Source: Minisyncoccota bacterium
Lineage (GTDB): Bacteria; Patescibacteriota; Microgenomatia; UBA1400; UBA12028
Reading direction: 5' to 3'
DNA: 64,000 nucleotides
NCBI GenBank assembly: GCA_016211945.1
Contig: JACRHV010000011.1
Span: forward strand, 787 to 64,786
In this document: positions 3,226-45,798 of the stretch, piece after piece
Position numbering within the stretch: position 1 is the first letter of the stretch
Layout: every line of letters begins with the position of its first letter
The notes under the pieces: model-generated
Seen by the model: only the letters and a program-made list of their open reading frames with translations
Databases searched by the model: none
Told to the model about the DNA's origin: nothing
Translations under genes and position numbers: made by a program

Positions 3226-4725
3226 ATGAAGAAACTTTCACTCCCTCCTTTTTCTTCTTTTCGCGACGTGGGTCGATGGGAAACATACATTCATCAAAAA
3301 TTGGCACCGTTTGAGCAAGATTTATCAAAATATCTCAAATTTTGGTACATCGAAAGCAGAGAGAACTCAAACGCATATCCAAGTCAAGGTATGTTGACAA
3401 CACCATTTGATTTTTTGCCGTTCACACAAAAGGTCATGATTGAGCCAGAGGAGATGGTTCATATTCTTCGCGTGCGACAGTATTTCCTCGAATTATTCAA
3501 TCACCCCGACCGCATCGCCGAACTCAAGCGCATACAGAAAACAAAATTTTCTCCCGTTCCCAAAGTGCAAAGCATCGCCATGGAAAAAACGACAAACCGT
3601 GGTCTTGCGGTATCTGTTTCAGACTTGGGGATTTCTGTTGTGGGATCAAACAGATCGCGCGTTTCCCGTACTGAACGATTTAAAAATGGGCCATTCATTA
3701 AGTTGGGTAAGCGGGCTCGTTCATTACTTGTAGGATCTGCTATGCCGGATATCTACGGAAGCGTCTCCGCAATCGCAACTATGGCCCAGTGTCTTTGTCT
3801 CGTCGGCGTTCCAAGAAACGGCCCATTTCATGTCATCCAGCGACAAGTCGATTTAGTCCGAGAAGTATGGAAAGCGTTGAAAGAGAGTGAGGTTTTGCTG
3901 GACCGTTCAAAGGAAGATCGTGCATTTCTTCTTGACCAATGGAGACATAACGTCATGGGCGTACTGGAAACAGAGATCGAGATAGCACTGCAGCGTGCAC
4001 AGGCACTCTACGATATTGGCGTCCGCGTATTTCGCGTGTACTCACCAGAGCCGGGCTTGAGCGTCCTGCACACTGTTCAGGCCTTGCGCAAGATTTTTGG
4101 ATCAAAAATCGAGATCTTTGCTGGACAAGTAGTTGATGTTGACCAAGCAAAACAGCTGGAGGAGGCTGGAGCAGACGGTTTATACATTGGCATTGGCGGT
4201 GGGGGACGGTGCATCACTGGTGTAAGGAGTGGATCTGTTATTGATTGGCCGCAACTTTTGTGGAATCTCCGCGGAGAGATTGGCATTCCCGTTATTGTTG
4301 AAGGGGGTGCAAGTGATCACATTGCGGTGACCTTGGCGCTTGGTGCGAGCGGTATTGGAGTTTCGCGTATCATTGGCGGTGGCACCATCGAGTCACCTGG
4401 CGGCATGCTGTACTGCGTCAACAAAGATGGGAAGTTGTTTAAGCCCTATGGAGGTGAGGCATCGGCTCGTACAAAGTTCTTGGACAAAAAAATGTTGCCA
4501 TTTCAATTACCATCGTTTGTTGAGGGTGAAACGAGCGCAGCAAACATCACGTTTTTACCGTACGGCATGCCAACTATTCCATTCAACGTCTTCAACTTAA
4601 CTGAGGATTGTATTCTCTCGCTGGTGTTTCGCGCCGTGCAAACAGTCGAGGAGTTGCACGCACTGGATCCATCGCCGATTCGACAAAAAACAGAAGTTGG
4701 AGAGGCGCTTCAAAAAACGCATTAA
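3226..4725 (+). CDS. Divergent IMP dehydrogenase/GMP reductase-family TIM-barrel protein with an unusual ~250-aa N-terminal extension
   Basis: GADGLYIGIGGGGRCITGVRSG resembles the IMPDH catalytic loop (GIGPGSICTTR) with the Cys conserved; IPVIVEGGASDHIAV resembles the phosphate/FMN-binding region; no CBS pair recognised. Confidence 0.5.
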   Translation: MKKLSLPPFSSFRDVGRWETYIHQKLAPFEQDLSKYLKFWYIESRENSNAYPSQGMLTTPFDFLPFTQKVMIEPEEMVHILRVRQYFLELFNHPDRIAELKRIQKTKFSPVPKVQSIAMEKTTNRGLAVSVSDLGISVVGSNRSRVSRTERFKNGPFIKLGKRARSLLVGSAMPDIYGSVSAIATMAQCLCLVGVPRNGPFHVIQRQVDLVREVWKALKESEVLLDRSKEDRAFLLDQWRHNVMGVLETEIEIALQRAQALYDIGVRVFRVYSPEPGLSVLHTVQALRKIFGSKIEIFAGQVVDVDQAKQLEEAGADGLYIGIGGGGRCITGVRSGSVIDWPQLLWNLRGEIGIPVIVEGGASDHIAVTLALGASGIGVSRIIGGGTIESPGGMLYCVNKDGKLFKPYGGEASARTKFLDKKMLPFQLPSFVEGETSAANITFLPYGMPTIPFNVFNLTEDCILSLVFRAVQTVEELHALDPSPIRQKTEVGEALQKTH

Positions 4726-4728
4726 AGT

Positions 4729-6261
4729 TTAGCGTTGAGCGAGTGTGTGGTTGATTTCGCCGATGAGCTGCGGACCTTTGTATATCATTCCCGTGATAAG
4801 TTGTACCAGATCTGCTCCCAATACCAGTTTTTTTTGTGCATCGTTGCCGGAAAAAATGCCACCAGTCCCAATGATCGTAAACCGTTTTCCATAGTGTTTC
4901 TTTGTATACGCAATGAGTGTATTTGACCGATTCCATGTTGGTTTTCCGCTCAAGTTCCCGCGACTTTTTTTCCAAAGAACGGTATCCATTGGATGCACAT
5001 CAGGATTTTTTTTATCTTTCGTTAAGTTTCCAAAAATGATGCCTTTGATAAAAGAGAATCCTGAAGCGGTTTTGAGTAAAGCTCCACTCTCTTTCTGTGA
5101 AAGATCAATCGGCATCTTTATGTACACCGGCTTCTTTATCCTCAACGGCTTGAGTGCGACCAATAGTTTTTTTAGTCTGACTGCAGTAGTAAATGGCTGT
5201 CCTCCCACCGTATTTGGGCAGCTAATGTTGAGTTCGTAGTACGCATTTTTTATTGTTGACGCAAGAAACAGTTTAAAGCATGAGACAATATCGGCGATTT
5301 GATCATCTAATGAGGCATAGGTTGCATTTGTACTGCCAATACTTATTCCTGTTGGAATAGTAAAGGTTGTGTGCTCTAACTTCTGAATGATCGCTTGTGC
5401 ACCCACACTCTTAAACCCCTTGTTGACAAGTAGTGCGTTGGATCGCGGAAAACGCCCCAATCTTGGTTTTGCATTTCCTGCATATGGGCGAAATGTCACG
5501 GTGCCAATGGTGTGCCACCCAAATCCAACGGAAGGGAGAATGCCACACAACTCCGCGTTGTAATCAAAGCCTGCGGCGAGTCCCACGGGGTTGGGAAAAC
5601 GTATGCCGTCGATGGTTTTTATCAATGTTTTATTTGCGTATGCGAACATCCATGATACGAGCCTCCGCGTTACCCCCCAACTTCCAAGTGTTTTTCCGAT
5701 TGTTGTCATCGAAACATGCACAAATTCCGCATCAAAGAGAAAAAATAGTGGTTTGAATATATATTGGTATAAAAGCGCGGACACAACAGACCTTGGCGAC
5801 GAACAAAGATCGGAGCATGTGCCTCGTTTCAGGTACCATTGCATGACATTGAGAATAAATAAGACAAGGCAGGCGACCGCGGATCCTAAACAGTAGAGGC
5901 ACCATGCCTGTAGTATGACACCCATAAGAAACACCAGATACCCTGAAAACAAAGCACCAAAAATTGAGAGTCCAAGTTGGATATCATGTGTGTGTAGTTT
6001 TCTATTGAGTATTGTGATGTGATCAATCTCTAAAATATGAAGCGCGGCAAATATAAAGGTGATGAAATAGAAAACTAAACCAAAAAAAGAAAGCGGAACA
6101 CCAAAAAGACTCGACCATGAACTCGTAAGCACCGATCCGCAATCAAACCCGGAAATACATGGGGGCAAGGTTCGCGAAAGTTTCTCATATGTGAGATACG
6201 CGGCATCCATCATACCGAGTATTGATACACTCAAAATACCGAGTCGCAGAAAAAGTTTCAT
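4729..6261 (-). CDS. pyrD: Fusion protein: N-terminal VKOR (vitamin K epoxide reductase-like thiol-quinone oxidoreductase) membrane domain + C-terminal class-2 dihydroorotate dehydrogenase
   Basis: N-terminal 150 aa are hydrophobic helices carrying PPCISGFDCGSVLTSSWSSLFGVPLSFFG (the VKOR loop Cys pair + SxxFGxP) and AWCLYCLG (CxxC in a TM helix). The remainder matches class-2 DHODH end to end: FLFDAEFVHVSMTT (N-terminal quinone-site helices), PVGLAAGFDYNAE, NISCPNT, IIGTGGI, KGPQLIGEI. Confidence 0.75.
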   Translation of the reverse strand: MKLFLRLGILSVSILGMMDAAYLTYEKLSRTLPPCISGFDCGSVLTSSWSSLFGVPLSFFGLVFYFITFIFAALHILEIDHITILNRKLHTHDIQLGLSIFGALFSGYLVFLMGVILQAWCLYCLGSAVACLVLFILNVMQWYLKRGTCSDLCSSPRSVVSALLYQYIFKPLFFLFDAEFVHVSMTTIGKTLGSWGVTRRLVSWMFAYANKTLIKTIDGIRFPNPVGLAAGFDYNAELCGILPSVGFGWHTIGTVTFRPYAGNAKPRLGRFPRSNALLVNKGFKSVGAQAIIQKLEHTTFTIPTGISIGSTNATYASLDDQIADIVSCFKLFLASTIKNAYYELNISCPNTVGGQPFTTAVRLKKLLVALKPLRIKKPVYIKMPIDLSQKESGALLKTASGFSFIKGIIFGNLTKDKKNPDVHPMDTVLWKKSRGNLSGKPTWNRSNTLIAYTKKHYGKRFTIIGTGGIFSGNDAQKKLVLGADLVQLITGMIYKGPQLIGEINHTLAQR

Positions 6262-6373
6262 GCAGTAATTATAGTACTATTTCGTGACAAGAGAATGGCG
6301 TTTTTTCTTGCCAGTACCAGTAAAAGTTGAATCATCACTCCTTTTTTTTAACTCTTGACTATTTTCTTCAAGA

Positions 6374-7048
6374 GTGACCATAGTAGATTGTATGAAAAAG
6401 AGAACAATGAAAAAGGCACAATCGGTCTCGTTTCGCACCGATCTTTTTCAATATATTCATGTATTTCTTTTTAGTGTCGTGTTGTTGGCTGTTTCATATT
6501 GGTACATTTCCTGGTTAAAAATACCAAATCCACTCAACAAATCATTTGCTGATACCTCGATTTATCTCATTGGTCTTTCCATGGTTCTCGCGAGTGTGTG
6601 CTATTTCTGGAATGTTTTTGACCGGTTTATCGTCTACAGAAAACACCTTGGCATTGTGGGTTTTGCGTTTGGCCTTATGCATGTATATCTTTCGTTTGGA
6701 GCACTTCAGAAGCTTTTTATTGTCCAGACTTGGCAAAAGGGTGCAATGTGGCCAGCACTCACTGGCGCAATGGCTCTGGTCATTTTTGTTGTCATGGCTT
6801 TTGTAACACCCTCTGTCGTTGCAGAAAAATTGGGTGGAAAAATCTGGAGAAGTATCTTGCAACTCGGTCATCTTGGAGTGGTGTTAATCTGGTTACATGT
6901 CTACTTTTTAAAGTTTGGGTACATCCTTAAATGGTATAACGAGGGAATGAAAACACTACCATCTTCGAGTCTCATTGTTCTGATGTTTATGACTGTTGTG
7001 ATTGGATTGAGGACGGCGTTGTGGATTGTGTTGAAGAAAAAATCGTAG
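6374..7048 (+). CDS. Integral membrane protein (about 6 TM); possibly a ferric-reductase-like/MsrQ-like heme-b transmembrane domain
   Basis: Hydrophobic throughout; conserved-looking His residues sit in two helices (FGLMHVYLSFG, WLHVYFLKFG); the assignment is weak. Confidence 0.3.
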   Translation: MTIVDCMKKRTMKKAQSVSFRTDLFQYIHVFLFSVVLLAVSYWYISWLKIPNPLNKSFADTSIYLIGLSMVLASVCYFWNVFDRFIVYRKHLGIVGFAFGLMHVYLSFGALQKLFIVQTWQKGAMWPALTGAMALVIFVVMAFVTPSVVAEKLGGKIWRSILQLGHLGVVLIWLHVYFLKFGYILKWYNEGMKTLPSSSLIVLMFMTVVIGLRTALWIVLKKKS

Positions 7049-15269: not shown

Positions 15270-15779
15270 ATGAAAATTTTTATTCGCGTTTTTGCGTTGC
15301 TTATTATTCTTGGAGTCATTGGTGCGGGAGTGTTTTTTGTATCGCAAAATGTGAAGAAAAACTCCATGATCAATACAAAGAATACAATGGAAAAAACTGA
15401 AAATATCATGAAAAAAGAGGATGAAAAGCAAATCATGATGACCGATACAAATAAAATAGGCCAATACATTGAGTACTCAAAAACAGCATTTGATCAGAAC
15501 TCGAACAAAAAGAGAGTGTTATTCTTTTATGCAAACTGGTGTCCGGTTTGCCAACCAGCTGACAAAAGTATTAAAGAAAATAGCGGAAAAATTCCAGCCG
15601 ATGTTGTGGTTATTCGAGTCAATTATAATGATTCTGATACCGATCAAGAAGAAAAGGCACTTGCGCAAAAATATGGCATTACGTATCAACATACTTTTGT
15701 TCAAATAGACGGTGAAGGAAAAGAAGTCATAAAGTGGAATGGCGGACAACTCGATGAGTTACTAGCAAAAATGCAGTAA
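15270..15779 (+). CDS. Membrane-anchored/secreted thioredoxin-like protein
   Basis: N-terminal hydrophobic anchor followed by VLFFYANWCPVCQ (a WCxxC thioredoxin active site). Confidence 0.65.
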   Translation: MKIFIRVFALLIILGVIGAGVFFVSQNVKKNSMINTKNTMEKTENIMKKEDEKQIMMTDTNKIGQYIEYSKTAFDQNSNKKRVLFFYANWCPVCQPADKSIKENSGKIPADVVVIRVNYNDSDTDQEEKALAQKYGITYQHTFVQIDGEGKEVIKWNGGQLDELLAKMQ

Positions 15780-15795
15780 AATAGGAACGCCACAT

Positions 15796-17520
15796 ATGAT
15801 ACTCCTCCTCATTTTTGCATTCCTTGCTGGACTAGTCACCATACTTTCACCATGTATCCTCCCAGTACTCCCAATCATCCTCTCCACCTCAGTGGGTGGA
15901 GAGCGTGCCGGACGAGCGTATCCCATTGGAGTCGTGTCGGGCTTTGTTATAAGCTTCACTTTTTTCACGCTTTTTCTTTCTACTATTGTCCGTATTAGTG
16001 GTATATCTCCAGATTTGCTTCGATACATTGCTGTCGTTATCATCGCCGGTTTTGGCTTTTCACTGTTGATTCCTCGATTCCAATCCTTTTTTGAATACGC
16101 CTTCTCTTTTTTGAGTCATTTTGCGCCTCGAACAAATAATAAGGCTGGATACGGCGGGGGAGTTGCTGTTGGATTATCTCTCGGGCTCCTGTGGACTCCG
16201 TGTGTGGGTCCGATTCTTGCTTCCGTCATCTCTCTTGCGATCACTGGTTCTGTCACTCTTGATACTTTCTTCATTACTTTTGCATACGCAATGGGTGCTG
16301 CCATTCCCATGTTTGCAATTATGATCGGGGGCAGTAATTTGCTTCATCGCATACCGTGGCTTCTTGCACATACGACACATATTCAAAAAGCATTTGGAAT
16401 CATCATGATTATAACTGCGCTTGGAATTTTCCTCAATTGGGATCGGCGTGTACAAACATATGTGCTCCAAACTTTTCCACAGTATGGGACTGGACTCACA
16501 ACATTTGAAAATATTGCTCCTGTTCAAAAGCAATTGGAACGTGTGAATGGAAAAAATACGGAACAAACAAATAGTGGAAAACCGCTTTTTGATCTTCAGC
16601 CCAAAGGAGTAAAAGCCCCAGAACTTATTCCCGGCGGAGTGTGGCTAAACAGTGCGCCTCTCACGCTTACACAACTGAAAGGGAAAGTTGTTGTTATAGA
16701 TTTTTGGACATACTCATGCATTAACTGTCAGCGAACACTACCATATCTTCGACAATGGTATGAAAAATACAAAGACAGTGGATTGGTGATTATTGGTGTG
16801 CACTCACCGGAGTTTGAGTTTGAAAAGAATGAAAAAAATCTTGCAAAGGCTGTTGCCGATTTTGGCCTCTTATATCCCATTGTTCAAGACAATAATTTTT
16901 CTACATGGAAAGCGTATCGTAATAATTACTGGCCGGCAAAGTATGTTATTGATAAAGAGGGAAATATTCGGTATACCCATTTTGGCGAAGGCGGGTACGA
17001 TGAAAGCGAGCGGGTTATTCAAGCATTGTTGAAAGAAACTGGTGCAACAAACGTCCCCACCTCTCTGAACAATCCACAGTATCAAACATACGCAAAAACG
17101 CCAGAAACATACCTTGGCTATGCCCGTATTGATCGATTTGCATCACAGGAACGCATTATTCCAGACAAAGTATTTCTCTATTCAGTCGCATCGCCGATGG
17201 AAAATAATGAGGTGGCTTTTGTTGGAAATTGGGAAGTGACACGAGAGTATGCTGCGCCTCAAAAAGGGGCAAAACTTTTTATGACATTCGAGTCAAAGGA
17301 AGTATATCTTGTTATGAAACCAACAGGCACATCTGCAAAAGTCAAAGTTTTTGTTGACGGCGTTGCGCAATATTTTGGAAAAGATGCCATGGGTGGAGTC
17401 GTAACTGTTGATGCCGATCGACTCTATACACTCATCACATTGCCAAGTCCCGGAAAACACACACTTCAACTCGAATTTGAGGATGGCGAGGTGCAACTTT
17501 TTGCATTCACATTTGGGTAA
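15796..17520 (+). CDS. CcdA/DsbD-family transmembrane electron transporter fused to a thioredoxin/TlpA-like redoxin domain, plus a C-terminal extra domain
   Basis: N-terminal TM domain carries LSPCILPVLP and WTPCVGPIL (the two conserved DsbD/CcdA Cys); it is followed by VVVIDFWTYSCINCQRTLP (a redoxin CxxC) and a ~170-aa C-terminal domain. Confidence 0.7.
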   Translation: MILLLIFAFLAGLVTILSPCILPVLPIILSTSVGGERAGRAYPIGVVSGFVISFTFFTLFLSTIVRISGISPDLLRYIAVVIIAGFGFSLLIPRFQSFFEYAFSFLSHFAPRTNNKAGYGGGVAVGLSLGLLWTPCVGPILASVISLAITGSVTLDTFFITFAYAMGAAIPMFAIMIGGSNLLHRIPWLLAHTTHIQKAFGIIMIITALGIFLNWDRRVQTYVLQTFPQYGTGLTTFENIAPVQKQLERVNGKNTEQTNSGKPLFDLQPKGVKAPELIPGGVWLNSAPLTLTQLKGKVVVIDFWTYSCINCQRTLPYLRQWYEKYKDSGLVIIGVHSPEFEFEKNEKNLAKAVADFGLLYPIVQDNNFSTWKAYRNNYWPAKYVIDKEGNIRYTHFGEGGYDESERVIQALLKETGATNVPTSLNNPQYQTYAKTPETYLGYARIDRFASQERIIPDKVFLYSVASPMENNEVAFVGNWEVTREYAAPQKGAKLFMTFESKEVYLVMKPTGTSAKVKVFVDGVAQYFGKDAMGGVVTVDADRLYTLITLPSPGKHTLQLEFEDGEVQLFAFTFG

Positions 17521-18082
17521 AAGATGAGACAAAAGTTGGCGTTTTATACTCTTCTTTCACCACATCTCCATATTTTTCTAGGAGTTTTTTCACTTTAGGA
17601 TGAATTGTCACGGAGCAATACGGGGCATCCGAATGTTTCTCAAAGTAATTTTTATGATACTGTTCTGCGGGATAAAAAACGGTGTATGGAACAATTTCTG
17701 TCACGATTGGATCAGAAAATATTTTTGCTTCTGCGAGTTCTTTTTTTGATGTCTCGGCTATCTCTTTTTGTTTTTCGTTATGATAAAAAATTGCTGATCG
17801 ATACTGCGTCCCAACGTCATTCCCTTGTTGATTGCGCGTGGTTGGATTATGCGTATGCCAAAAAATTTCAAGAATCTTTTCATATGGAATTTGATCGGGA
17901 TCAAACATGACTTGAATTGCCTCTGCGTGACCAGTTTGGCCATCACAGACTTGGTCATATGTTGGATTTTTTGTTAAACCACCGGTATAACCCGGAAGCA
18001 CAGAAGTAACTCCGCGTAAACGCGTAAAGATCGCCTCTGTACACCAAAAACATCCACCCGCCAATGTTGCTGTTTCAGACAT
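17507..18082 (-). CDS. msrA: Peptide methionine-S-sulfoxide reductase MsrA
   Basis: ATLAGGCFWCTEAIF is the GCFWC active-site motif. Confidence 0.9.
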   Translation of the reverse strand: MSETATLAGGCFWCTEAIFTRLRGVTSVLPGYTGGLTKNPTYDQVCDGQTGHAEAIQVMFDPDQIPYEKILEIFWHTHNPTTRNQQGNDVGTQYRSAIFYHNEKQKEIAETSKKELAEAKIFSDPIVTEIVPYTVFYPAEQYHKNYFEKHSDAPYCSVTIHPKVKKLLEKYGDVVKEEYKTPTFVSSFTQM

Positions 18083-18482
18083 GAAGTGCTCCTGGAAGGT
18101 TGTGATTTTTTGGAATAAAACGTATCGATAACGAGTTTACACAATGTCGAGTATCTGTGTTCGTCATGTGTTCTCCTGTAAAAATATGGCCGAGGTAGGC
18201 GTGGCAGTTCGCGCACACAATTTCTGTTCTGTTCCCTCGACTATCGTGAAGTCTTTGTACAGCGTTTGGATAGTTTTCATCAAAAGCTGGCCATCCGCAT
18301 CCCGCATCAAACTTGCTTTTTGAGGAAAACAGCGGAGCATTACACCTCCTGCAAATGAAGGTTCCTTCTTCGTAAAAACTATCATACTCACCGGAGAATG
18401 GAGCTTCCGTTCCTCTCTCCTCAATCACATGTTTTTCTTCTGGGGTTAATGTGTTATAAACCATTGTTTTTTTATAACACAT
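18075..18482 (-). CDS. msrB: Peptide methionine-R-sulfoxide reductase MsrB
   Basis: FICRRCNAPLF...AGCGWPAF...RTEIVCANCHAYLGHIF (zinc CxxC pairs and the RxxxxC catalytic motif); overlaps msrA by 8 nt. Confidence 0.9.
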   Translation of the reverse strand: MCYKKTMVYNTLTPEEKHVIEERGTEAPFSGEYDSFYEEGTFICRRCNAPLFSSKSKFDAGCGWPAFDENYPNAVQRLHDSRGNRTEIVCANCHAYLGHIFTGEHMTNTDTRHCVNSLSIRFIPKNHNLPGALHV

Positions 18483-19618: not shown

Positions 19619-20455
19619 TTACGCGAAAGGGTTTTTTGGAGTGAAGTCTGCACTTCCAATACTTTTTAGTAAATTTTTGTAACCTTCAGCTGGGTAAATG
19701 CAACCTAAAAAGTGCATATCTTGATCTATTTTGTTTGTCTGATCAAACCCACCTATAAATGAAAACTTAGGTTTCCCAATATCGTCCATCTTCGGTATTG
19801 CTTGGCACGATAGCAGCATTGCAAAATCAGCCAAAGGAGATTTCTCTTGTGGACTTATAACAAAACCTGTTTCTTTTAGTGTTCCGTCAGGTTCTCTAAA
19901 TGCAAAATGCGGTTGTTTGGGAATATCCTCGTTTATCTTTCCTTTGAGATCTGTTGCTTTGAACCACCAACCAACAAATTTTACAGCTTCTGGTGATCCG
20001 TCCTTAAATTCAAAGTCCAAATCAATTCTTTTATCACCGAATTTTTTATTTCCATCTCGCAGTTCAAATTCTTCAATACCCTGCATTTGTATTGTAAACA
20101 TATGTCCGTGACTCACATCAAGTCTTCTAGATTGGTTTTTGATTGAAGTAATTATTTTTCCGTCACCTGAAAAATGTGCGACTCCATCCATCGGATGACT
20201 ATACTTGACTAGATGACTCGTTACCTTTCCCTCAGGTAATAAAGAAATGCTAAGAGTACTAAGCTTTTGTGCTGGAAAAGTTAATCGACTCAATAGTCCT
20301 TTGGAGTCAGAGAAATAAGGGAATGTAACCAAATTATGAGTCTTGCCACTTGTTTTTCCAGTATGGAATACAATTTGAAATATCTTGTGAATTCTATCGT
20401 TAATTTTGAGTGAAACTGCAAATCTTTCACTCCTTATGGTAGGTAGCTTTGACAT
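19619..20455 (-). CDS. Hypothetical protein, no recognisable domain
   Basis: Long clean ORF adjacent to the DUF4145 gene and to tRNA-Gly. Confidence 0.4.
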   Translation of the reverse strand: MSKLPTIRSERFAVSLKINDRIHKIFQIVFHTGKTSGKTHNLVTFPYFSDSKGLLSRLTFPAQKLSTLSISLLPEGKVTSHLVKYSHPMDGVAHFSGDGKIITSIKNQSRRLDVSHGHMFTIQMQGIEEFELRDGNKKFGDKRIDLDFEFKDGSPEAVKFVGWWFKATDLKGKINEDIPKQPHFAFREPDGTLKETGFVISPQEKSPLADFAMLLSCQAIPKMDDIGKPKFSFIGGFDQTNKIDQDMHFLGCIYPAEGYKNLLKSIGSADFTPKNPFA

Positions 20456-22353: not shown

Positions 22354-23745
22354 TTATCTCACCATCTGTACAAGACTGTAAAAACCAAAACCCGCATAAA
22401 AACAAGCGGCAATACCTAAAATGATGCGACGCCACAACGACGTCCTCAACTCAAATTTCAGCACTGTCGTATTTATCCACACCGTCATGATGACGTGCAC
22501 AAACATCGCGATTGCGTTGAGTACCGCAGCAAAGGTGATAAGCATGAGCGGTTCGCGAAACCCCAAAAAGAAAACAATAATACCTGCGATGATTTGCAAC
22601 CATAACACAAGGTAATAGAGCGGTCGAAGATACGATCCTTTTTGTAGTCCCGGAATACCAAGTAATAACGTGTTTTCTGCTAATATTCTGCTTGATGCGT
22701 CAAAAATGGTGAGCTGCGTACCAAATAACGTTAATCCTGCAATAAGTAAAAAGAGTCCGCCAAACATCGGCATTGTTCGTTGCCCAATAACAACTGCTTC
22801 CTCTATAACAAACTGGATTCCTTGTGAAACAGGCGCTCCATACTGTGTGATATATGCAAGCAAGGATAAGCAAAGAATAGTGACTGCCCCCGTAAGCCAA
22901 AACACCAGCCAATGTTCCGTGTTTATAGTGGTCCACCATGCGCGGAAACGACGAAGTTGTGCGGGAGTATGTTCAAACGTGGATCCTGTTAATGACAAAG
23001 CTTCACTTTTGCCGAGAAGTATACTCGTAATTCTTCCAGCGTACTTTCCCATTCCATACCCTTTTTCTTTCACATAATACGACTGTGCGAGATTAAGATT
23101 TCCCCCCGCGCCAGAATAGGCAAAGGCTGCTAAAAATGATGCGATTGAAATTCCCGCAGGTAAGAATTGATATCCATTGCCAAAACCCACAATGCCGCGA
23201 ATGAGATCCATCCAATGGGAAGCGTGTGCAAGATATACAGATAATCCCACAACAGTGGGAATACTCACCATGATGAGTACCTTTTGAAATGTTTCTACTG
23301 TTTTGTACAGCACCGGACCGAATGTGAGTACGAGACCGATACATATCAACATGATGATCGCGACAACGCTACTGTCTTTCCATCCAAAAAGGGAAGAAAG
23401 AAGTACCGCCGACGCCGCAATAATACCCGGCCAAATCCACGGAACAAATGTTGAGAGAAGAAACCACAACGGCGACCACCAAAATTTTCTTTTGTATCCA
23501 ACAAAAACACTTTCTCCGTGTGCAAGCGCATATCGCTCAATCTCCATATTCATGAAAAATTGAAAGGTGAGCCCCAAAAGCGCGCCCCATATAATACCCA
23601 TACCGAATCGTGAAACTAAGTACGGCCAAAGAACAACCTCACCACTACCCAAACCAAGACCCAACAATATGACACTTGGACCAAAGACTTTAAGCAGAGA
23701 TGGAGCGGGCGGGAGTTCACGAATATTCAAGCGAGCAATAGGCAT
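22354..23745 (-). CDS. NRAMP-family (MntH-like) divalent metal transporter, divergent
   Basis: Polytopic membrane protein; FGPSVILLGLGLGSGEVVLWPYL sits where NRAMP has LGPGFL...DPGN, with GSGE in place of DPGN; start placed at the internal Met (MPIARL). Confidence 0.45.
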   Translation of the reverse strand: MPIARLNIRELPPAPSLLKVFGPSVILLGLGLGSGEVVLWPYLVSRFGMGIIWGALLGLTFQFFMNMEIERYALAHGESVFVGYKRKFWWSPLWFLLSTFVPWIWPGIIAASAVLLSSLFGWKDSSVVAIIMLICIGLVLTFGPVLYKTVETFQKVLIMVSIPTVVGLSVYLAHASHWMDLIRGIVGFGNGYQFLPAGISIASFLAAFAYSGAGGNLNLAQSYYVKEKGYGMGKYAGRITSILLGKSEALSLTGSTFEHTPAQLRRFRAWWTTINTEHWLVFWLTGAVTILCLSLLAYITQYGAPVSQGIQFVIEEAVVIGQRTMPMFGGLFLLIAGLTLFGTQLTIFDASSRILAENTLLLGIPGLQKGSYLRPLYYLVLWLQIIAGIIVFFLGFREPLMLITFAAVLNAIAMFVHVIMTVWINTTVLKFELRTSLWRRIILGIAACFYAGFGFYSLVQMVR

Positions 23746-23762
23746 GATACACTCATCGTAGC

Positions 23763-24260
23763 ATGAAAAAAACAGTGAACAAAGATTATTTTCGAAGTGC
23801 GTTGTTTGGTTCTGAGGACGCGTTAGTTTCCACAACGGGGACTGTTGTCGGAATCAGCGCGGGAACTTCAAATACATCATTTATCATTTTGGCTGCATTG
23901 GTCACGGTTATTGTTGAGGCACTCTCTATGGGAACCGGGGAGTATCTCACAGAAAAATCGGTCCATGAGCTCGATCGGTTCCGATGGTTGAAAAAGAGCA
24001 GGCCGTCTATGGGTGGTCTTGTTATGTTTTTTTCATATTTGGGTGCGGGACTTATTCCCGTTATCCCAATTATCATTCTTCCGTATCCTACGTCAGCAGT
24101 ATTGAGTACGTTTGCTGCATTTTTCGGTTTGTTTACATTGGGATACATAAAAGGGAGGGTTGTTGGAATAACGCCAATAAAAAGTGGATTTCAGGTGTTG
24201 TTGGTTGGAGGAATAGCGACCTTGGCTGGGTTGGTGGTGGGGATTATGTTGCGGAAGTAA
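23763..24260 (+). CDS. VIT1/CCC1-family iron/manganese transporter membrane domain
   Basis: RSALFGSEDALVSTTGTVVGISAG...VEALSMGTGEYLTEKS matches the VIT family signature (VfGanDGlvS...SMalGEY.S). Confidence 0.6.
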   Translation: MKKTVNKDYFRSALFGSEDALVSTTGTVVGISAGTSNTSFIILAALVTVIVEALSMGTGEYLTEKSVHELDRFRWLKKSRPSMGGLVMFFSYLGAGLIPVIPIIILPYPTSAVLSTFAAFFGLFTLGYIKGRVVGITPIKSGFQVLLVGGIATLAGLVVGIMLRK

Positions 24261-39752: not shown

Positions 39753-42005
39753 ATGGCAAATAACACAACCGTAACAATCCCCGTAAAAGGCATGCACTGC
39801 GCAAGTTGTGTTTCGGTCATTTCAAGAACACTTAAAAATATTCCGGGCGTGCAAGACTGCGCTGTGAATCTTGCAACGGAAAAAGCAAAAATCACATTTG
39901 ATTCCGATCAAACATCCATTCAAACGATGAATCACGAGCTTCATGACTATGGGTATACGTTGGAAAATACATCGCAATCTAATCAAGTGTCACACATGAA
40001 TCATGAAGGTAGCCATGCGCATGCTCCACAGTTGCTTATTGTTTCACTCATTGTTTTTACAGTGATGATGTGGGATATCTTGGCTCAAACTTTCTCATAT
40101 ATTCCGAAGAACCCGGTACCATTAGAAACGCAAAATCTCATGCTTTTCCTCATTTCTACCGTCATTATGGCAACAACGGGGACACAATTTATTCAAGCAA
40201 CGTGGCGTTTCATAAAGACCAGAAAAGCAAACATGGACACTCTTATAGGTATTGGAACGGGAACTGCGTATTTATACTCCGCACTCATTACCCTCATTCC
40301 AACCCTTGCAAACACATTACAACTTCCGGAAACCATGTACTTTGATGTCGTCATCGTTGTCATTGGATTTATTGTCTATGGAAAACATTTGGAGGCAATC
40401 TCGAAACAAAAAACTGGCGAGGCATTGCAAAAACTTCTCCAACTCCAAGCAAAAACTGCTATTGTGCTGCGCGGAAAAGTAGAAATCGAAGTTTCAATCG
40501 ATGACGTCCGCGTTGGTGACATGATGATTGTAAAACCAGGAACAAAAATCCCCCTTGACGGTATTGTAGTAAGCGGCGCCTCCGCGGTCGATGAGTCTTT
40601 GGTCACCGGCGAGTCGCTTCCCGTTGACAAGAAAGTGAGAGACATAGTGATTGGTGGAACCATGAATCAACAAGGTATGCTTATGGTTCGTGCAGAGAAA
40701 ATCGGCAAAGATACCATGCTTGCGCAGATTGCACACATGGTTGAGGATGCGCAAACAACAAAAGCTCCTATTGAACGACTCGCTGACCAAATATCGAGTG
40801 TGTTTGTCCCCATCGTCCTTGTCATTGCGTTTGTCACTCTGGCACTTTGGCTCTTTCTTGCCCCGCAGTTCATTCCATTTCAACAGGCCGTGGCATTCGC
40901 CATTACTTGCTTTGTTGGGATTTTAGTCATTGCGTGTCCGTGTGCGCTTGGATTGGCGACACCAACGGCAATGATTGTTGCTGTCGGTCGCGGGGCACAA
41001 CACGGCATTCTCATCAAAGACGCCGAAAGCTTGGAGAAACTACATACTACACAAGTTGTTGTGATGGACAAAACGGGGACCCTAACAAATGGAAAGCCCG
41101 TAGTCACCGACATTGTTCCGGCGAAAAAATTTACACCAACCTATGTTTTACAACTTGCCGCATCGCTGGAACATCATTCTGAACATCCGCTGGCTCGTGC
41201 AATTATGGATCGCGCTACACTAGAAAACACCGCTCCTCTTGCAACCAAACAGTTTTATGCAGCACAGGGGAAAGGGATTACGGGGGTCGTCAAAAACACA
41301 ACATATTTTGCGGGTAATGCTCGGTATCTTGAAGAACATGCGATTCGTATTCCTCAAGAAGTTATGGATTCACCGCTCAGAATTCAAGGAAAAACACCAA
41401 TTTACCTTGCGTCTAAAACGTCATATATGGGTGCGTTGTACATTGCAGACACCGTAAAATCAAACGCAAAACAAGCTGTGGCACGTCTGCACAAACTCGG
41501 AATTAAAGTCGTCATGCTTACCGGAGACATTCCGGAAACCGCACGTGCAATCGCACAAGATGTAGGGATTGATGAAGTTGTTGCACACGTTCTTCCGCAT
41601 GAAAAAGCATTGCATGTTTCACGATTCAAAGAAAAAGGGAAGCATGTGGCCATGGTGGGTGATGGTGTCAATGACGCGCCCGCACTCGCTACCGCGGACA
41701 TTGGTGTTGCCATGAGTACAGGAACAGACATCGCGATCTCCACCGCACAGATTACACTACTTCACGGAGATATTGAAAAACTCGTAGAGGCAATCGCGTT
41801 ATCCAAAAGCACAATGAGCATCATTAAACAAAATCTTTTCTGGGCGTTTTTTTATAACGTCGTCGGCATTCCAATAGCTGCTGGGGCACTATATCCATTC
41901 TTTGGCATTTTGCTCAATCCTATCTTTGCAGGATTAGCTATGGCAATGAGTAGTGTGAGTGTTGTTGCAAACTCTTTACGATTGCGGAATCTCCGCATAC
42001 ACTAA
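39753..42005 (+). CDS. copA: Copper-translocating P1B-type ATPase
   Basis: N-terminal HMA domain GMHCASCVS; CPC ([11 protein letters not shown]); DKTGTLT; [10 protein letters not shown]. Confidence 0.9.
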
Positions 42006-42019
42006 TATGAAGGAGTAGT

Positions 42020-43138
42020 ATGAACCTATGGGCAATATTTTTGACGGGCCTTACGACAGGTGGATTGACATGTCTTGCGATGCAAGGGGGGCTCCTCGCA
42101 GGTGTGATTGCAAACCAAAAGGGAGATGAACTTGCAACTCTAGAGTCGGATAAAGAAGCCAAAAAAGAGGCGAAACGACAGGCGTATATTCGTACCATGC
42201 AGGGCCAATCTCAACTGAAGATTGACCAGCTTGACTGGATGCCGGTCACGATGTTCTTGCTTGCAAAGCTCATTTCGCATACTGTCGTCGGATTTTTCTT
42301 GGGAGCGTTAGGCTCTGTCATTACATTAAGTTTAGAGGTCCGATTGTTTTTCCAAGTGTTTACCGCTCTTTTTATGTTTGCAACCGCGATGAACTTATTG
42401 GAAGTGCATCCAATTTTCCGGTACGTCGTGATTCAACCTCCCAAGTTCATTCAACGTTTGATTCGTGACACAACCAAAAGCCGTGCTGTTTTTACCCCTG
42501 CGCTCCTTGGCTTCATGACCATATTTATTCCATGCGGCGTGACACAAGCCATGGAGGTTCTCGCAATAAATACCGGGAGTCCTATTTACGGCGCGCTCAT
42601 TATGTTCTTTTTTGTTCTTGGAACTTCGCCTTTGTTTGCACTGGTAGGTATTGCAACCGCAAAGTTGTCCGAGTTGTGGAACACGAGATTCCTTCGACTC
42701 GCAGCACTTTCGCTTATCGCAATGACGGTGTACGGATTGAATGGTGTATTAACTGTTCTTGATTCACCTCTTTCACTTCAGCGCCTTGGAAAAAGCATCT
42801 CTAGTATTGGTGAACCGCCCGATTGGTACGGTTCTGCGAATGGACCACAAACTACAGTGACAACAATAAACGGAAAACAACAGGTAAAGATTTCTATTTC
42901 AAGTCGCGGATATTCGCCGACTGAGTTCACTGTAAAAGCCGGAGTCCCTGTCGAGTTACAACTCGAAAGTAATGGGGCGTACTCGTGCGCAACCTCGTTT
43001 ACATTCCGAAAGTTCAATGTGTTTACACAGTTAAAGCCAAATGATTCCAAAACCATTGCGATCACACCGACAGAAAAAGGAAACTTCACCTTTTCATGTT
43101 CGATGGGTATGTATACTGGCGTGATGCATGTGATATAG
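42020..43138 (+). CDS. Polytopic membrane protein with a C-terminal cupredoxin-like beta domain (a cop-operon component)
   Basis: About eight TM helices, then a soluble ~110-aa beta-rich tail ending FSCSMGMYTGVMHV (Cys/Met/His cluster); sits between copA and copZ. Confidence 0.4.
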   Translation: MNLWAIFLTGLTTGGLTCLAMQGGLLAGVIANQKGDELATLESDKEAKKEAKRQAYIRTMQGQSQLKIDQLDWMPVTMFLLAKLISHTVVGFFLGALGSVITLSLEVRLFFQVFTALFMFATAMNLLEVHPIFRYVVIQPPKFIQRLIRDTTKSRAVFTPALLGFMTIFIPCGVTQAMEVLAINTGSPIYGALIMFFFVLGTSPLFALVGIATAKLSELWNTRFLRLAALSLIAMTVYGLNGVLTVLDSPLSLQRLGKSISSIGEPPDWYGSANGPQTTVTTINGKQQVKISISSRGYSPTEFTVKAGVPVELQLESNGAYSCATSFTFRKFNVFTQLKPNDSKTIAITPTEKGNFTFSCSMGMYTGVMHVI

Positions 43139-44098: not shown

Positions 44099-45067
44099 CT
44101 ATCTCTCCAACGCCTTTCTATACGCATCAAAATGCAACGTTGGTTTTCCCTGCGCATCATAAAAACTAAACTGTGAGAATACGCCCGGCGCCCCGTTGAG
44201 CACAAACGGGGTAACGGCACGCACGCGTGGATCGGACCAAATGTGGTCCACAGCATATCTGTAGTACTGGTAGAGCCAACGCGACGTTTGTTTCGAGTCT
44301 GTCCACCCTGTCTCTGTGATATAAACCGGAAATTCTTTTGCAGTATATTTCCTCAAATACTCCAACTCATACTCAAAACCGCGCAAACTATTTTTTCCTT
44401 TTGCCGTTGGTGCGGCACTAAAGGCGGGGTTGGGATACGAATGTGAGGTCCACCCATCAAGCATGACCAACAACTCATCATTGTCCTTCAGCATGCGATC
44501 CAAAAAAGTAAATGCATCCAGTGTATCTTTGCCGTTTGGCGCGGCGAGATCTAACCCCGCAGGCAGTACAACATACCCAGCAAGTTCGGCATGCAACCAG
44601 TCCGCGGTAAATCGCAACACATATCCATATCCCTCGGGATCTATTGTTCCACCCCATTCATTTTTATGATTTGGCTCGTTAAACACCACCACTATGCGCT
44701 CAGTAGGGATCGGCCATTCCATTCGCGATAATACGGCGGTCATCTCAACAATATCTTTTCTCGTGGGAATCTGCCAAGATCCATCCTGAAACCGCGTGGC
44801 TAATCGCACAATTGGCTGAAACTTCAACTCTCGAGCCTGGTAAAAAAAACGTTGCCACTCAGCCTTCCGTTGAATATCATCAAAAGTAAACGGGATTGTC
44901 ACGTAATCCCATGTATTTTTTGTTTTTTCCGTTTTGATGAGCGCGCTAGCCTTGTCCAACTCGCCAGTATTGAGAATATGGACACCCAAAACTTCCGCCG
45001 CATAGACCGGCCGCACAAACACAATAAAAAACAACATAAAACATATAAAAAATTTCATCAGCTCCAT
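44099..45067 (-). CDS. Secreted clan GH-A (GH5-like) glycoside hydrolase
   Basis: Signal peptide MELMKFFICFMLFFIVFVRPVYA; VVFNEPNHKNEW (NEP acid/base motif) and VYITETGW (ETG nucleophile motif). Confidence 0.5.
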   Translation of the reverse strand: MELMKFFICFMLFFIVFVRPVYAAEVLGVHILNTGELDKASALIKTEKTKNTWDYVTIPFTFDDIQRKAEWQRFFYQARELKFQPIVRLATRFQDGSWQIPTRKDIVEMTAVLSRMEWPIPTERIVVVFNEPNHKNEWGGTIDPEGYGYVLRFTADWLHAELAGYVVLPAGLDLAAPNGKDTLDAFTFLDRMLKDNDELLVMLDGWTSHSYPNPAFSAAPTAKGKNSLRGFEYELEYLRKYTAKEFPVYITETGWTDSKQTSRWLYQYYRYAVDHIWSDPRVRAVTPFVLNGAPGVFSQFSFYDAQGKPTLHFDAYRKALER

Positions 45068-45135
45068 TGTACCATTGATCTGGAAAACCGCTTGTATTCT
45101 CCAATATCCTACTGCACACAGTAAAAAAATCCAGT

Positions 45136-45798
45136 ATGATGAATACTATGACCAAAATGTTTTTGTGTTTATCGTGGTTTGTTTTAACAACCTTTACCTT
45201 TGCCACAACAACCTCTTTACTCTATGCAACACAGCAAAAACGCATTGTTTTGGTGCAACCATATGCCGCACCCATTACAGCGTCATCTACACAATATCCT
45301 CGAGGAAAATCAGACCAAGGCATTGCAATGATTGTTGAGTCCGGCGATGCCCGAGTCGCGATTGTTGCGTCGTTTCTTGAGCGGTATAAATCTCCACTTA
45401 AGCCATACGATCATTTTGCTCAGTTCATCGTGAGTACTGCAGATCAACATAGCGTTGATTATCGGCTAATTCCCGCCATCATGATGCAAGAAAGCAACCT
45501 CTGTAAAATGATTCCCGAAGGAAGTAATAACTGCTTGGGATTTGGAATACACAAGGGAGGAACGCTTGGGTTTGATAGTTTTGAAGCATCTATTGAACGT
45601 GCAACTCGGGAACTCAAGGCAAATTATATTGACAGGGGCCTCACAACACCAGAGAAAATCATGACGAAATACACTCCACACAGTAATGGCTCTTGGGCAA
45701 ACTCAGTAAACCAATGGATAGCCGAGATGGAGTATAACGATCGAGATCTGGGAAAGACCGAAAAAAGCGATGCAGATCTGACGCAATATGCTAAATAG
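45136..45798 (+). CDS. Secreted lysozyme-like/SLT-type peptidoglycan hydrolase domain protein
   Basis: N-terminal signal/anchor; IPAIMMQESNLC resembles the lytic transglycosylase catalytic ES motif. Confidence 0.4.
   Translation: MMNTMTKMFLCLSWFVLTTFTFATTTSLLYATQQKRIVLVQPYAAPITASSTQYPRGKSDQGIAMIVESGDARVAIVASFLERYKSPLKPYDHFAQFIVSTADQHSVDYRLIPAIMMQESNLCKMIPEGSNNCLGFGIHKGGTLGFDSFEASIERATRELKANYIDRGLTTPEKIMTKYTPHSNGSWANSVNQWIAEMEYNDRDLGKTEKSDADLTQYAK

Follow-up and report, generated by a model that had tools for sequence, protein, structure and literature searches.

A VKOR-dihydroorotate dehydrogenase fusion widespread in one bacterial radiation

A VKOR module fused to an atypical dihydroorotate dehydrogenase

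We analysed a stretch of 64,000 nucleotides (hereafter the window) from a Minisyncoccota bacterium, corresponding to positions 787 to 64,786 of contig JACRHV010000011.1. A single gene on its minus strand (4729..6261) encodes a 510-residue protein in which a VKOR module is fused to a dihydroorotate dehydrogenase (DHODH). The open reading frame (ORF) extends from an ATG to a TAA stop codon at 4729-4731, and its description rests on the ORF listing, Pfam and NCBIfam. Two Pfam domains are found in it, the N-terminal PF07884 at residues 9-138 and the C-terminal PF01180 at residues 214-509, so that the fusion reported in an initial annotation of this DNA is real, and the motifs quoted there are indeed present. 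The same annotation knew of no description of the architecture. In agreement with this, full-text literature searches returned no description of a VKOR-DHODH fusion, their matches being ferroptosis reviews and Meheust 2019 on MdbA-VKOR, PMC6744442 does not mention it, and databases name the protein only 'dihydroorotate dehydrogenase (quinone)'. The NCBI record, for instance, is titled 'MAG: dihydroorotate dehydrogenase (quinone) [Candidatus Pacebacteria bacterium]', a name that conceals half of the protein.

The junction between the two modules is genuine. An identical 510-residue protein (100% identity) is present in NCBI and in an independent Logan assembly, and both Pfam domains occur in 120/120 of the best database homologues, which come from many assemblies (49-90 % identity, 96-100 % coverage, 492-570 residues) and are fused over the same junction; the fused gene is also carried by contigs of 0.8-1.37 Mb. 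Split forms found elsewhere do prove that a two-gene state exists, but an assembly chimera or frameshift uniting two genes in this window alone, for which no supporting evidence was found, is effectively refuted by the second assembly and by the 120 fused homologues on contigs of up to 1.37 Mb, and its probability is negligible. Upstream of the ATG, a perfect TATAAT lies at a distance of about 8 nt (window 6262-6285, minus strand) with no obvious Shine-Dalgarno sequence, which suggests that the mRNA of the fusion gene may be leaderless or have a very short leader.

The VKOR module (residues 1-145; 5827..6261, minus strand) consists of four transmembrane (TM) helices with both termini predicted to be cytoplasmic, as delineated from PF07884, a PDB match, the helices of an AlphaFold2 (AF2) model and the distribution of lysine and arginine (K+R). 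The PF07884 match to residues 9-138 covers profile positions 3-133 of 134 (E 4.6e-25; 88.8 bits vs a cut-off of 27.5), and residues 9-140 match the sequence of Synechococcus VKOR in the PDB (4nv6/3kp9; E 5.5e-7 for 4nv6). Helices are modelled at residues 2-28, 57-76, 91-117 and 122-145. In an alignment of 32 homologues, Cys35, Cys41, Cys121 and Cys124 are all invariant. The first two form the extracytoplasmic loop pair Cys35...Cys41 (CISGFDC; 6139..6159, minus strand), the shuttle pair of VKOR, while Cys121-Leu-Tyr-Cys124 (CLYC; 5890..5901, minus strand) is the active-site CxxC at the outer end of TM4. Ser47, the conserved loop serine of the VKOR family, is likewise invariant in 32/32 sequences; in the larger set, the loop pattern Cx5C is kept in 120/120 homologues and the CxxC in 119/120. 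The module therefore presents the attributes of a VKOR-family member: a score above the profile threshold, a four-helix TM core whose cysteines probably face outward, and the cysteine pair, CxxC and loop serine. A fifth TM helix and a periplasmic thioredoxin-like domain are absent, since only four TM segments are found and the protein has no thioredoxin-family match.

Between the modules, residues 146-163 form a K/R-rich, presumably cytoplasmic linker of 18 residues (5773..5826, minus strand), variable in sequence in the 32-sequence alignment and having the lowest pLDDT of the AF2 model (67-72). The protein contains four hydrophobic segments; loop 2 is rich in K+R residues (3.4), as is the linker (4.1 on average, vs 0.8 for D+E), and the cysteine loop is acidic. 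Because of this positive-inside bias, loop 2 and the linker are placed in the cytoplasm. The topology would thus be that of a canonical VKOR, N-in/C-in, with the cysteines outside and the DHODH in the cytoplasm, in keeping with the interpretation of the initial annotation. The AF2 model computed on the alignment (mean pLDDT 89.9, pTM 0.82) shows four TM helices, the low-confidence linker, helices at 156-206 and a TIM barrel. By analogy with established VKOR and DHODH structures, the VKOR quinone site would lie in the outer leaflet by the CxxC and the DHODH tunnel in the cytoplasmic leaflet, so that any communication between modules located at opposite faces of the membrane would have to use a mobile quinone. 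The linker also contains a pair of cysteines, Cys149/Cys153 (GTCSDLCSSPR; window 5803-5817, minus strand), between TM4 and the DHODH helices; this pair is restricted to the sub-clade closest to the window (8/32 aligned homologues).

The DHODH module begins with putative membrane-surface helices corresponding to the class-2 quinone tunnel (residues 164-206; 5644..5772, minus strand), followed by a flavin mononucleotide (FMN)-binding TIM barrel (residues 207-510; 4732..5643, minus strand). PF01180 matches residues 214-509 with E 1.1e-49 (169.6 bits vs a cut-off of 27), and the barrel also matches PDB entries 8ofw, 4xq6, 7ut5 and 1f76. The tunnel helices are supported by NCBIfam, AF2 and Foldseek: quinone-dependent DHODH models of NCBIfam start aligning at residue 164, and thus include the N-terminal helices; AF2 places helices at 156-173, 178-194 and 196-206; and in Foldseek some 344 residues can be superposed on class-2 DHODHs over their full length (8OFW from Mycobacterium tuberculosis, 6B8S from Helicobacter pylori, 1F76 from Escherichia coli), with target TM-scores of 0.88-0.90. 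Glu179, the tunnel histidine His182 and the tunnel arginine Arg270 are invariant in the 32-sequence alignment. We take His182 to correspond to His19 of the E. coli and His56 of the human enzyme. Lys382, the second FMN lysine (IKMPID vs VKIAPD in class 2), and Asn412 are invariant as well, the orotate-binding asparagines are kept, and the further motifs DAEFVH, GLAAGFDY, NISCPN and IIGTGGI are all present.

Other positions depart from class 2. The catalytic-base motif Asn-Ile-Ser-Cys348-Pro-Asn (5212..5229, minus strand) carries a cysteine at the position of the class-2 serine: in alignments to class-2 PDB entries, Cys348 falls on the second serine of NVSSPNT or NISSPNT, and NISCPN or NVSCPN is found in 120/120 fused and 44/44 unfused relatives. 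The initial annotation had cited NISCPNT as a class-2 hallmark, an attribution that does not stand, the class-2 motif being NxSSPNT. In the GFDY motif (5560..5571, minus strand), Tyr234 takes the place of the class-2 lysine that contacts FMN and orotate (GxDK). GLAAGFDY aligns here with GLAAGFDK of M. tuberculosis DHODH; Asp233 and Tyr234 are invariant in the 32 sequences, and the position is that of Lys66 in E. coli and Lys100 in human DHODH. Finally, the NRMGFNN of class 2 is replaced by VNKGFKS, with a new invariant lysine, Lys281. The Ser-to-Cys and Lys-to-Tyr calls rest on PDB alignments, independently of the E. coli, human and Lactococcus lactis reference sequences.

Among the profile models, TIGR01036 is just above its cut-off (202.4 vs 200 bits), nine of nine NF0036xx equivalogs (PRK05286) are below theirs (264.8 vs 448 and 257.6 vs 267, for instance), and class-1 models match weakly (40.9-55 bits vs cut-offs of 269-301; E ~1e-6 to 1e-7). 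The module has the tunnel helices of class 2 with their histidine and arginine, and lacks the serine base and the GxDK lysine; it has the cysteine base of class 1A, but also an N-terminal extension and scores below the class-1 cut-offs. Judged from these alignments, it is a distinct DHODH lineage that joins a class-2 scaffold and tunnel to a class-1-type base, contrary to what textbooks hold, namely that the base is a serine in class 2 and a cysteine in class 1. The 'complete class-2 DHODH' of the initial annotation is hence retained for the fold and the tunnel helices and abandoned for the catalytic base and the Lys66 position. At the level of aligned positions, the two modules have their full complement of catalytic and quinone-site residues, the DHODH being only partly a complete class-2 enzyme.

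None of the five nearest known systems combines VKOR with DHODH. The Synechococcus VKOR-thioredoxin fusion (3KP9/4NV6) has the same four-helix core, loop cysteine pair and CxxC, and also joins VKOR to a redox domain; its additional parts are a fifth TM helix and a periplasmic thioredoxin-like electron donor, whereas here VKOR is joined to an FMN dehydrogenase located in the cytoplasm, which reduces quinone in its own right. Class-2 DHODHs (E. coli PyrD 1F76, M. tuberculosis 8OFW, human) share the fold, including the two-helix quinone tunnel, but they have the serine base, the GxDK lysine and NRMGFNN, with no polytopic membrane protein attached, in place of the cysteine, tyrosine, VNKGFKS and attached VKOR seen here. 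Mitochondrial DHODH, also of class 2, is tethered by a TM segment just ahead of its tunnel helices; that anchor is one inert helix, whereas in the fusion its place is taken by a whole redox enzyme whose catalytic cysteines are invariant. Class-1A DHODH, represented by the fumarate-dependent PyrDA of L. lactis, is cytosolic, has no tunnel helices and gives a weak match only. Its common features are presumably NxSCPN with the cysteine base and an IGTGGI near the C-terminus. Lastly, the MdbA/VKOR pairs of Actinobacteria and of the Candidate Phyla Radiation (CPR, or Patescibacteria) involve the same family, as a small standalone VKOR proposed to re-oxidise a secreted thiol-disulfide oxidase for the folding of pilins (PMC6744442); they differ in that the present gene has no MdbA-like neighbour, and that it is DHODH which stays beside VKOR or is fused to it.

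Distribution and split forms

Relatives of the protein are abundant: at least 573 stretches encoding one were found when each GTDB species was represented by a single genome. The best 80 of these belong to Patescibacteria/CPR lineages (Pace-, Woese-, Roizman-, Gottesman- and Cerribacteria); some of the 80 are titled 'Pseudomonadales' or 'Gammaproteobacteria', all from one third-party assembly series. The fusion is therefore real and widespread in one radiation, and mechanistically it admits several readings. One Roizmanbacteria genome, CandRoiz1, encodes two fused paralogues on separate contigs (L053 8391-9872; L077 1802-3238).

In other relatives the two modules are encoded separately. The unfused DHODHs (354-387 residues) retain NISCPN, with a VKOR of the same type (148-167 residues) alongside, and a VKOR gene lies within ~1.5 kb of the DHODH gene in 12/15 complete unfused loci sampled. 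Three arrangements recur. The VKOR gene overlaps the start of the DHODH gene by 4 nt, in a translationally coupled pair, in L042, L046, L089 and L094/95; the order is VKOR-LDH-DHODH, where LDH denotes lactate dehydrogenase, in L041 and L052; and it is DHODH-(Crp family)-VKOR-L-LDH-flavodoxin in L039, L044, L048, L085-88 and L090. In a rough neighbour-joining (NJ) tree, the fused forms do not separate from the unfused ones but lie scattered among them, with at least 11 changes of state. Neighbourhoods were compared by clustering the ORFs of 87 related loci, over ~10 kb on each side of the gene, and are otherwise highly shuffled, the L-lactate dehydrogenase and the Crp-family regulator adjoining several fused genes as well.

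One syntenic slot summarises this plasticity. In the order RecQ-MazG-radical SAM-methyltransferase-[X]-VIT1, four occupants of X are seen: the fusion, the split pair, VKOR alone (L096/97) and DHODH alone, without any remnant of VKOR (L069). Because the two genes overlap or adjoin in relatives while one slot can hold either of them alone, VKOR and DHODH are best regarded as functionally linked yet separable. Repeated fusion and fission, together with conserved adjacency, favour the functional link put forward in the initial annotation; the obligate coupling that it implied is argued against by the VKOR-only and DHODH-only derivatives of this slot. On the evidence of gene order, the genetic link appears persistent and non-obligate, each module being evidently able to work unattached.

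In a quick NJ tree, fused and split VKORs group in one clade; the nearest relatives of the VKOR module encoded in the window are standalone CPR VKORs, with 41-46 % identity, and the closest of these (46 %) does not adjoin a DHODH. On these sequences, a specialised VKOR clade has no more than weak support.

No pyrimidine gene recurs beside the fusion in the 87 related loci. Phmmer searches with E. coli PyrB, PyrE and PyrF sequences gave no match in the flanks either, although at ~10 kb per side these are too short to make the result informative. The phosphoribosyltransferase found upstream in some loci was considered as a PyrE and rejected, as it is ComF-like. Two kinds of unfused loci show further associations. 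In L085 (9777-11605; equivalents in L086, L088 and L090), an operon of overlapping genes encodes VKOR, an L-lactate dehydrogenase of the NAD-dependent type (scoring above the TIGR01771 cut-off) and a short flavodoxin; a divergent Crp-family regulator separates this operon from DHODH, and the whole looks like a small redox island. In L091 (7076-7711), an unfused Cys-type DHODH with no VKOR nearby is overlapped downstream by a DUF6498 protein, which could be an alternative DHODH partner.

Readings of the VKOR-DHODH linkage

The CPR makes up a large share of bacterial diversity and, to our knowledge, is devoid of respiratory chains and of quinone synthesis. Many of its members nonetheless retain a DHODH of the quinone type together with a disulfide system based on VKOR, and how either enzyme disposes of its electrons is puzzling. 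The conserved physical and genetic link between the two makes this question approachable on one 510-residue protein. Quinone is the electron acceptor of VKOR and of class-2 DHODH alike in the reactions known for them. The element common to the two modules would accordingly be the membrane quinone, and since both families put electrons into it, they do not make an obvious donor-acceptor pair, a point absent from the initial annotation.

The reading we favour, tentatively and with slightly less than even confidence, is that of two canonical quinone reducers, co-localised and co-expressed on one scarce quinone that is reoxidised elsewhere. The gene product would be a bifunctional integral-membrane oxidoreductase. 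Outside the cell, the VKOR loop pair and CxxC would swap electrons with a secreted thioredoxin-fold protein and with the membrane quinone; TM4 would end in the cytoplasm, where the 18-residue basic linker would lead first to the pair of amphipathic helices that form the quinone tunnel and then to the FMN barrel. In the cytoplasmic leaflet, quinone would receive the electrons of dihydroorotate by way of FMN; in the outer leaflet, it would receive those of protein dithiols by way of VKOR. Being linked or fused to VKOR would provide an otherwise peripheral DHODH with a membrane anchor beside a quinone-binding bundle, and would secure 1:1 co-expression of the two enzymes in cells that have no respiratory chain and probably obtain their quinone by scavenging. 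The resulting quinol would be reoxidised by a route not encoded at the locus.

This canonical-direction reading fits the separability of the modules and needs no new chemistry. Several published observations provide its setting. Genomes of the CPR, the group of the host, almost never encode respiratory complexes and often keep DHO_dh, in line with the initial annotation, which had considered a small genome that may be without a respiratory chain: DHO_dh is present in 894 of them, NuoK in 2 and COX1 in 33 (PMC6744442 Suppl. Data 1). A role proposed for VKOR in CPR bacteria is to return to its oxidised state an MdbA-like oxidase that serves the folding of pilins (PMC6744442), and quinone scavenging has been proposed for one CPR bacterium (PMC6031116). 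On the opposite side, canonical co-localisation accounts poorly for a linkage this persistent. Enzymes that merely share an acceptor pool are rarely adjacent, let alone fused, and fusions of redox domains mostly unite a donor with its acceptor. The locus showed no enzyme that would oxidise quinol, whole genomes not having been searched for one. The Ser-to-Cys and Lys-to-Tyr changes of the active site set the enzyme apart from textbook class 2, so its acceptor or substrate may differ. Finally, genomes with VKOR only or DHODH only might encode the partner elsewhere.

The broader alternative, possible though rather doubtful in our estimation, is that VKOR and DHODH together make up a self-contained, quinone-mediated transmembrane electron wire, running in either direction, in bacteria that have no respiratory chain. 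If true, such a wire would be a new coupling of nucleotide synthesis to cell-surface thiol chemistry and would define a new DHODH subclass: either the electrons of dihydroorotate would be discharged onto extracytoplasmic disulfides, or the Cys-type flavin module would be the missing sink for disulfide formation by VKOR.

The first of these directions, which we consider unlikely, is a closed quinone relay. Electrons would pass from dihydroorotate to FMN, to a locally held quinone, to the VKOR CxxC, to the loop cysteines and on to an external disulfide or thioredoxin-fold protein; the quinol would flip to the outer leaflet, and the cell would gain both a sink for DHODH electrons and extracellular reducing power without a respiratory chain. 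Fusion and conserved adjacency are the classic mark of consecutive redox partners, both quinone sites and all the cysteines are conserved, and respiratory complexes are almost never encoded in CPR bacteria. Potentials are about -0.25 V for orotate/dihydroorotate, -0.07 V for menaquinone and -0.12 V for DsbA. With these values, electrons passing from dihydroorotate to a DsbA-like disulfide would on the whole run downhill. The relay, however, needs VKOR to run backwards. VKOR and DsbB are known to us in the thiol-to-quinone direction only, and we know of no VKOR running in reverse; the electron flow from dihydroorotate to thiols envisaged by the initial annotation is accordingly without precedent, both families being quinone reducers. 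A reversed VKOR would also hold an MdbA/DsbA-type oxidase reduced, contrary to the role proposed for VKOR in the CPR, and external reductant is already supplied by CcdA-thioredoxin systems, one of which lies within this window. Moreover, VKOR-only and DHODH-only derivatives occur at the same locus, and no thioredoxin-fold partner is conserved beside the gene in the 87 related loci.

An improbable reading is that the fusion has no redox meaning, and results from translationally coupled neighbouring genes repeatedly losing and regaining a stop codon, with VKOR acting as a mere anchor or the fusion being neutral. Mitochondrial DHODH is anchored by a single N-terminal helix. The 11 or more switches between fused and unfused forms in the rough NJ tree, the 4-nt overlaps of split forms, a topology that is compatible without adaptation and the separability of the modules all agree with such a scenario. 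Against it stands a linkage that survives in three gene orders, even with an LDH or Crp-family gene in between, amid shuffled neighbourhoods: this persistence is unexpected without selection for co-function or co-regulation.

We give very little credence to the opposite direction of the wire, in which thiols of secreted proteins would pass electrons through an MdbA-like oxidase, VKOR and quinone to the FMN of the DHODH-like module, and from there to a cytoplasmic acceptor such as fumarate or O2. Its logic is analogous to that of the thiol-oxidase/flavin fusions QSOX and Erv. The cysteine base is that of the fumarate-reducing class-1A DHODHs, and both this residue and the tyrosine at the Lys66 position are invariant; a VKOR without a respiratory chain, besides, requires some oxidant. 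Yet orotate is too poor an oxidant (~-0.25 V, as given above), so that a new substrate must be assumed, and the step from menaquinol to the DHODH flavin would be uphill. The best hidden Markov model and fold matches are to true DHODHs, with the orotate-binding asparagines retained, and VKOR remains in loci where the DHODH part has been deleted.

Other genes in the window

The initial annotation had pointed to two possible partners nearby, at 6374-7048 and 15270-18482, neither of which proves to be conserved beside the gene in the 87 related loci. The former (plus strand) encodes a polytopic membrane protein of 224 residues whose resemblance to Ferric_reduct/MsrQ is weak (23.9 bits vs a cut-off of 28). 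It might be a quinol-linked haem-b protein, in a lineage believed not to synthesise haem; being unique to the window among these loci, it was rejected as a conserved partner. The latter is an extracytoplasmic reductive thiol cluster, which comprises a membrane-anchored thioredoxin (WCPVC), a 574-residue fusion of CcdA (DsbD_TM), Redoxin and Thioredoxin_10 domains, and MsrA and MsrB on the opposite strand. Its thioredoxin/CcdA pair was rejected as well, as it recurs in one other lineage only (L003), 2-4 kb from the fusion gene.

On the other side of the fusion gene, and convergent with it (stop codons 3 nt apart), lies a gene for a 499-residue barrel protein resembling inosine monophosphate dehydrogenase (IMPDH) and GMP reductase (GMPR; window 3226-4725, plus strand). 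PF00478 matches residues 168-417 only (75 bits); the protein has no CBS pair, a long unmatched N-terminus, and scores far below all NCBIfam IMPDH/GMPR cut-offs. With no counterpart in the 87 related loci, it too was rejected as a conserved partner.

Farther away, at 39753-43138 (plus strand), a copper P-type ATPase gene is followed by one for a 372-residue protein with a DsbD_2 membrane domain and a C-terminal cupredoxin-like domain, a pair that recurs in L024 and L028. ORFs of 278, 493, 322 and 220 residues, located at 19619-20455 (minus strand), 22354-23835 (minus strand) and 44099-45798, have no Pfam match at E <= 0.001.

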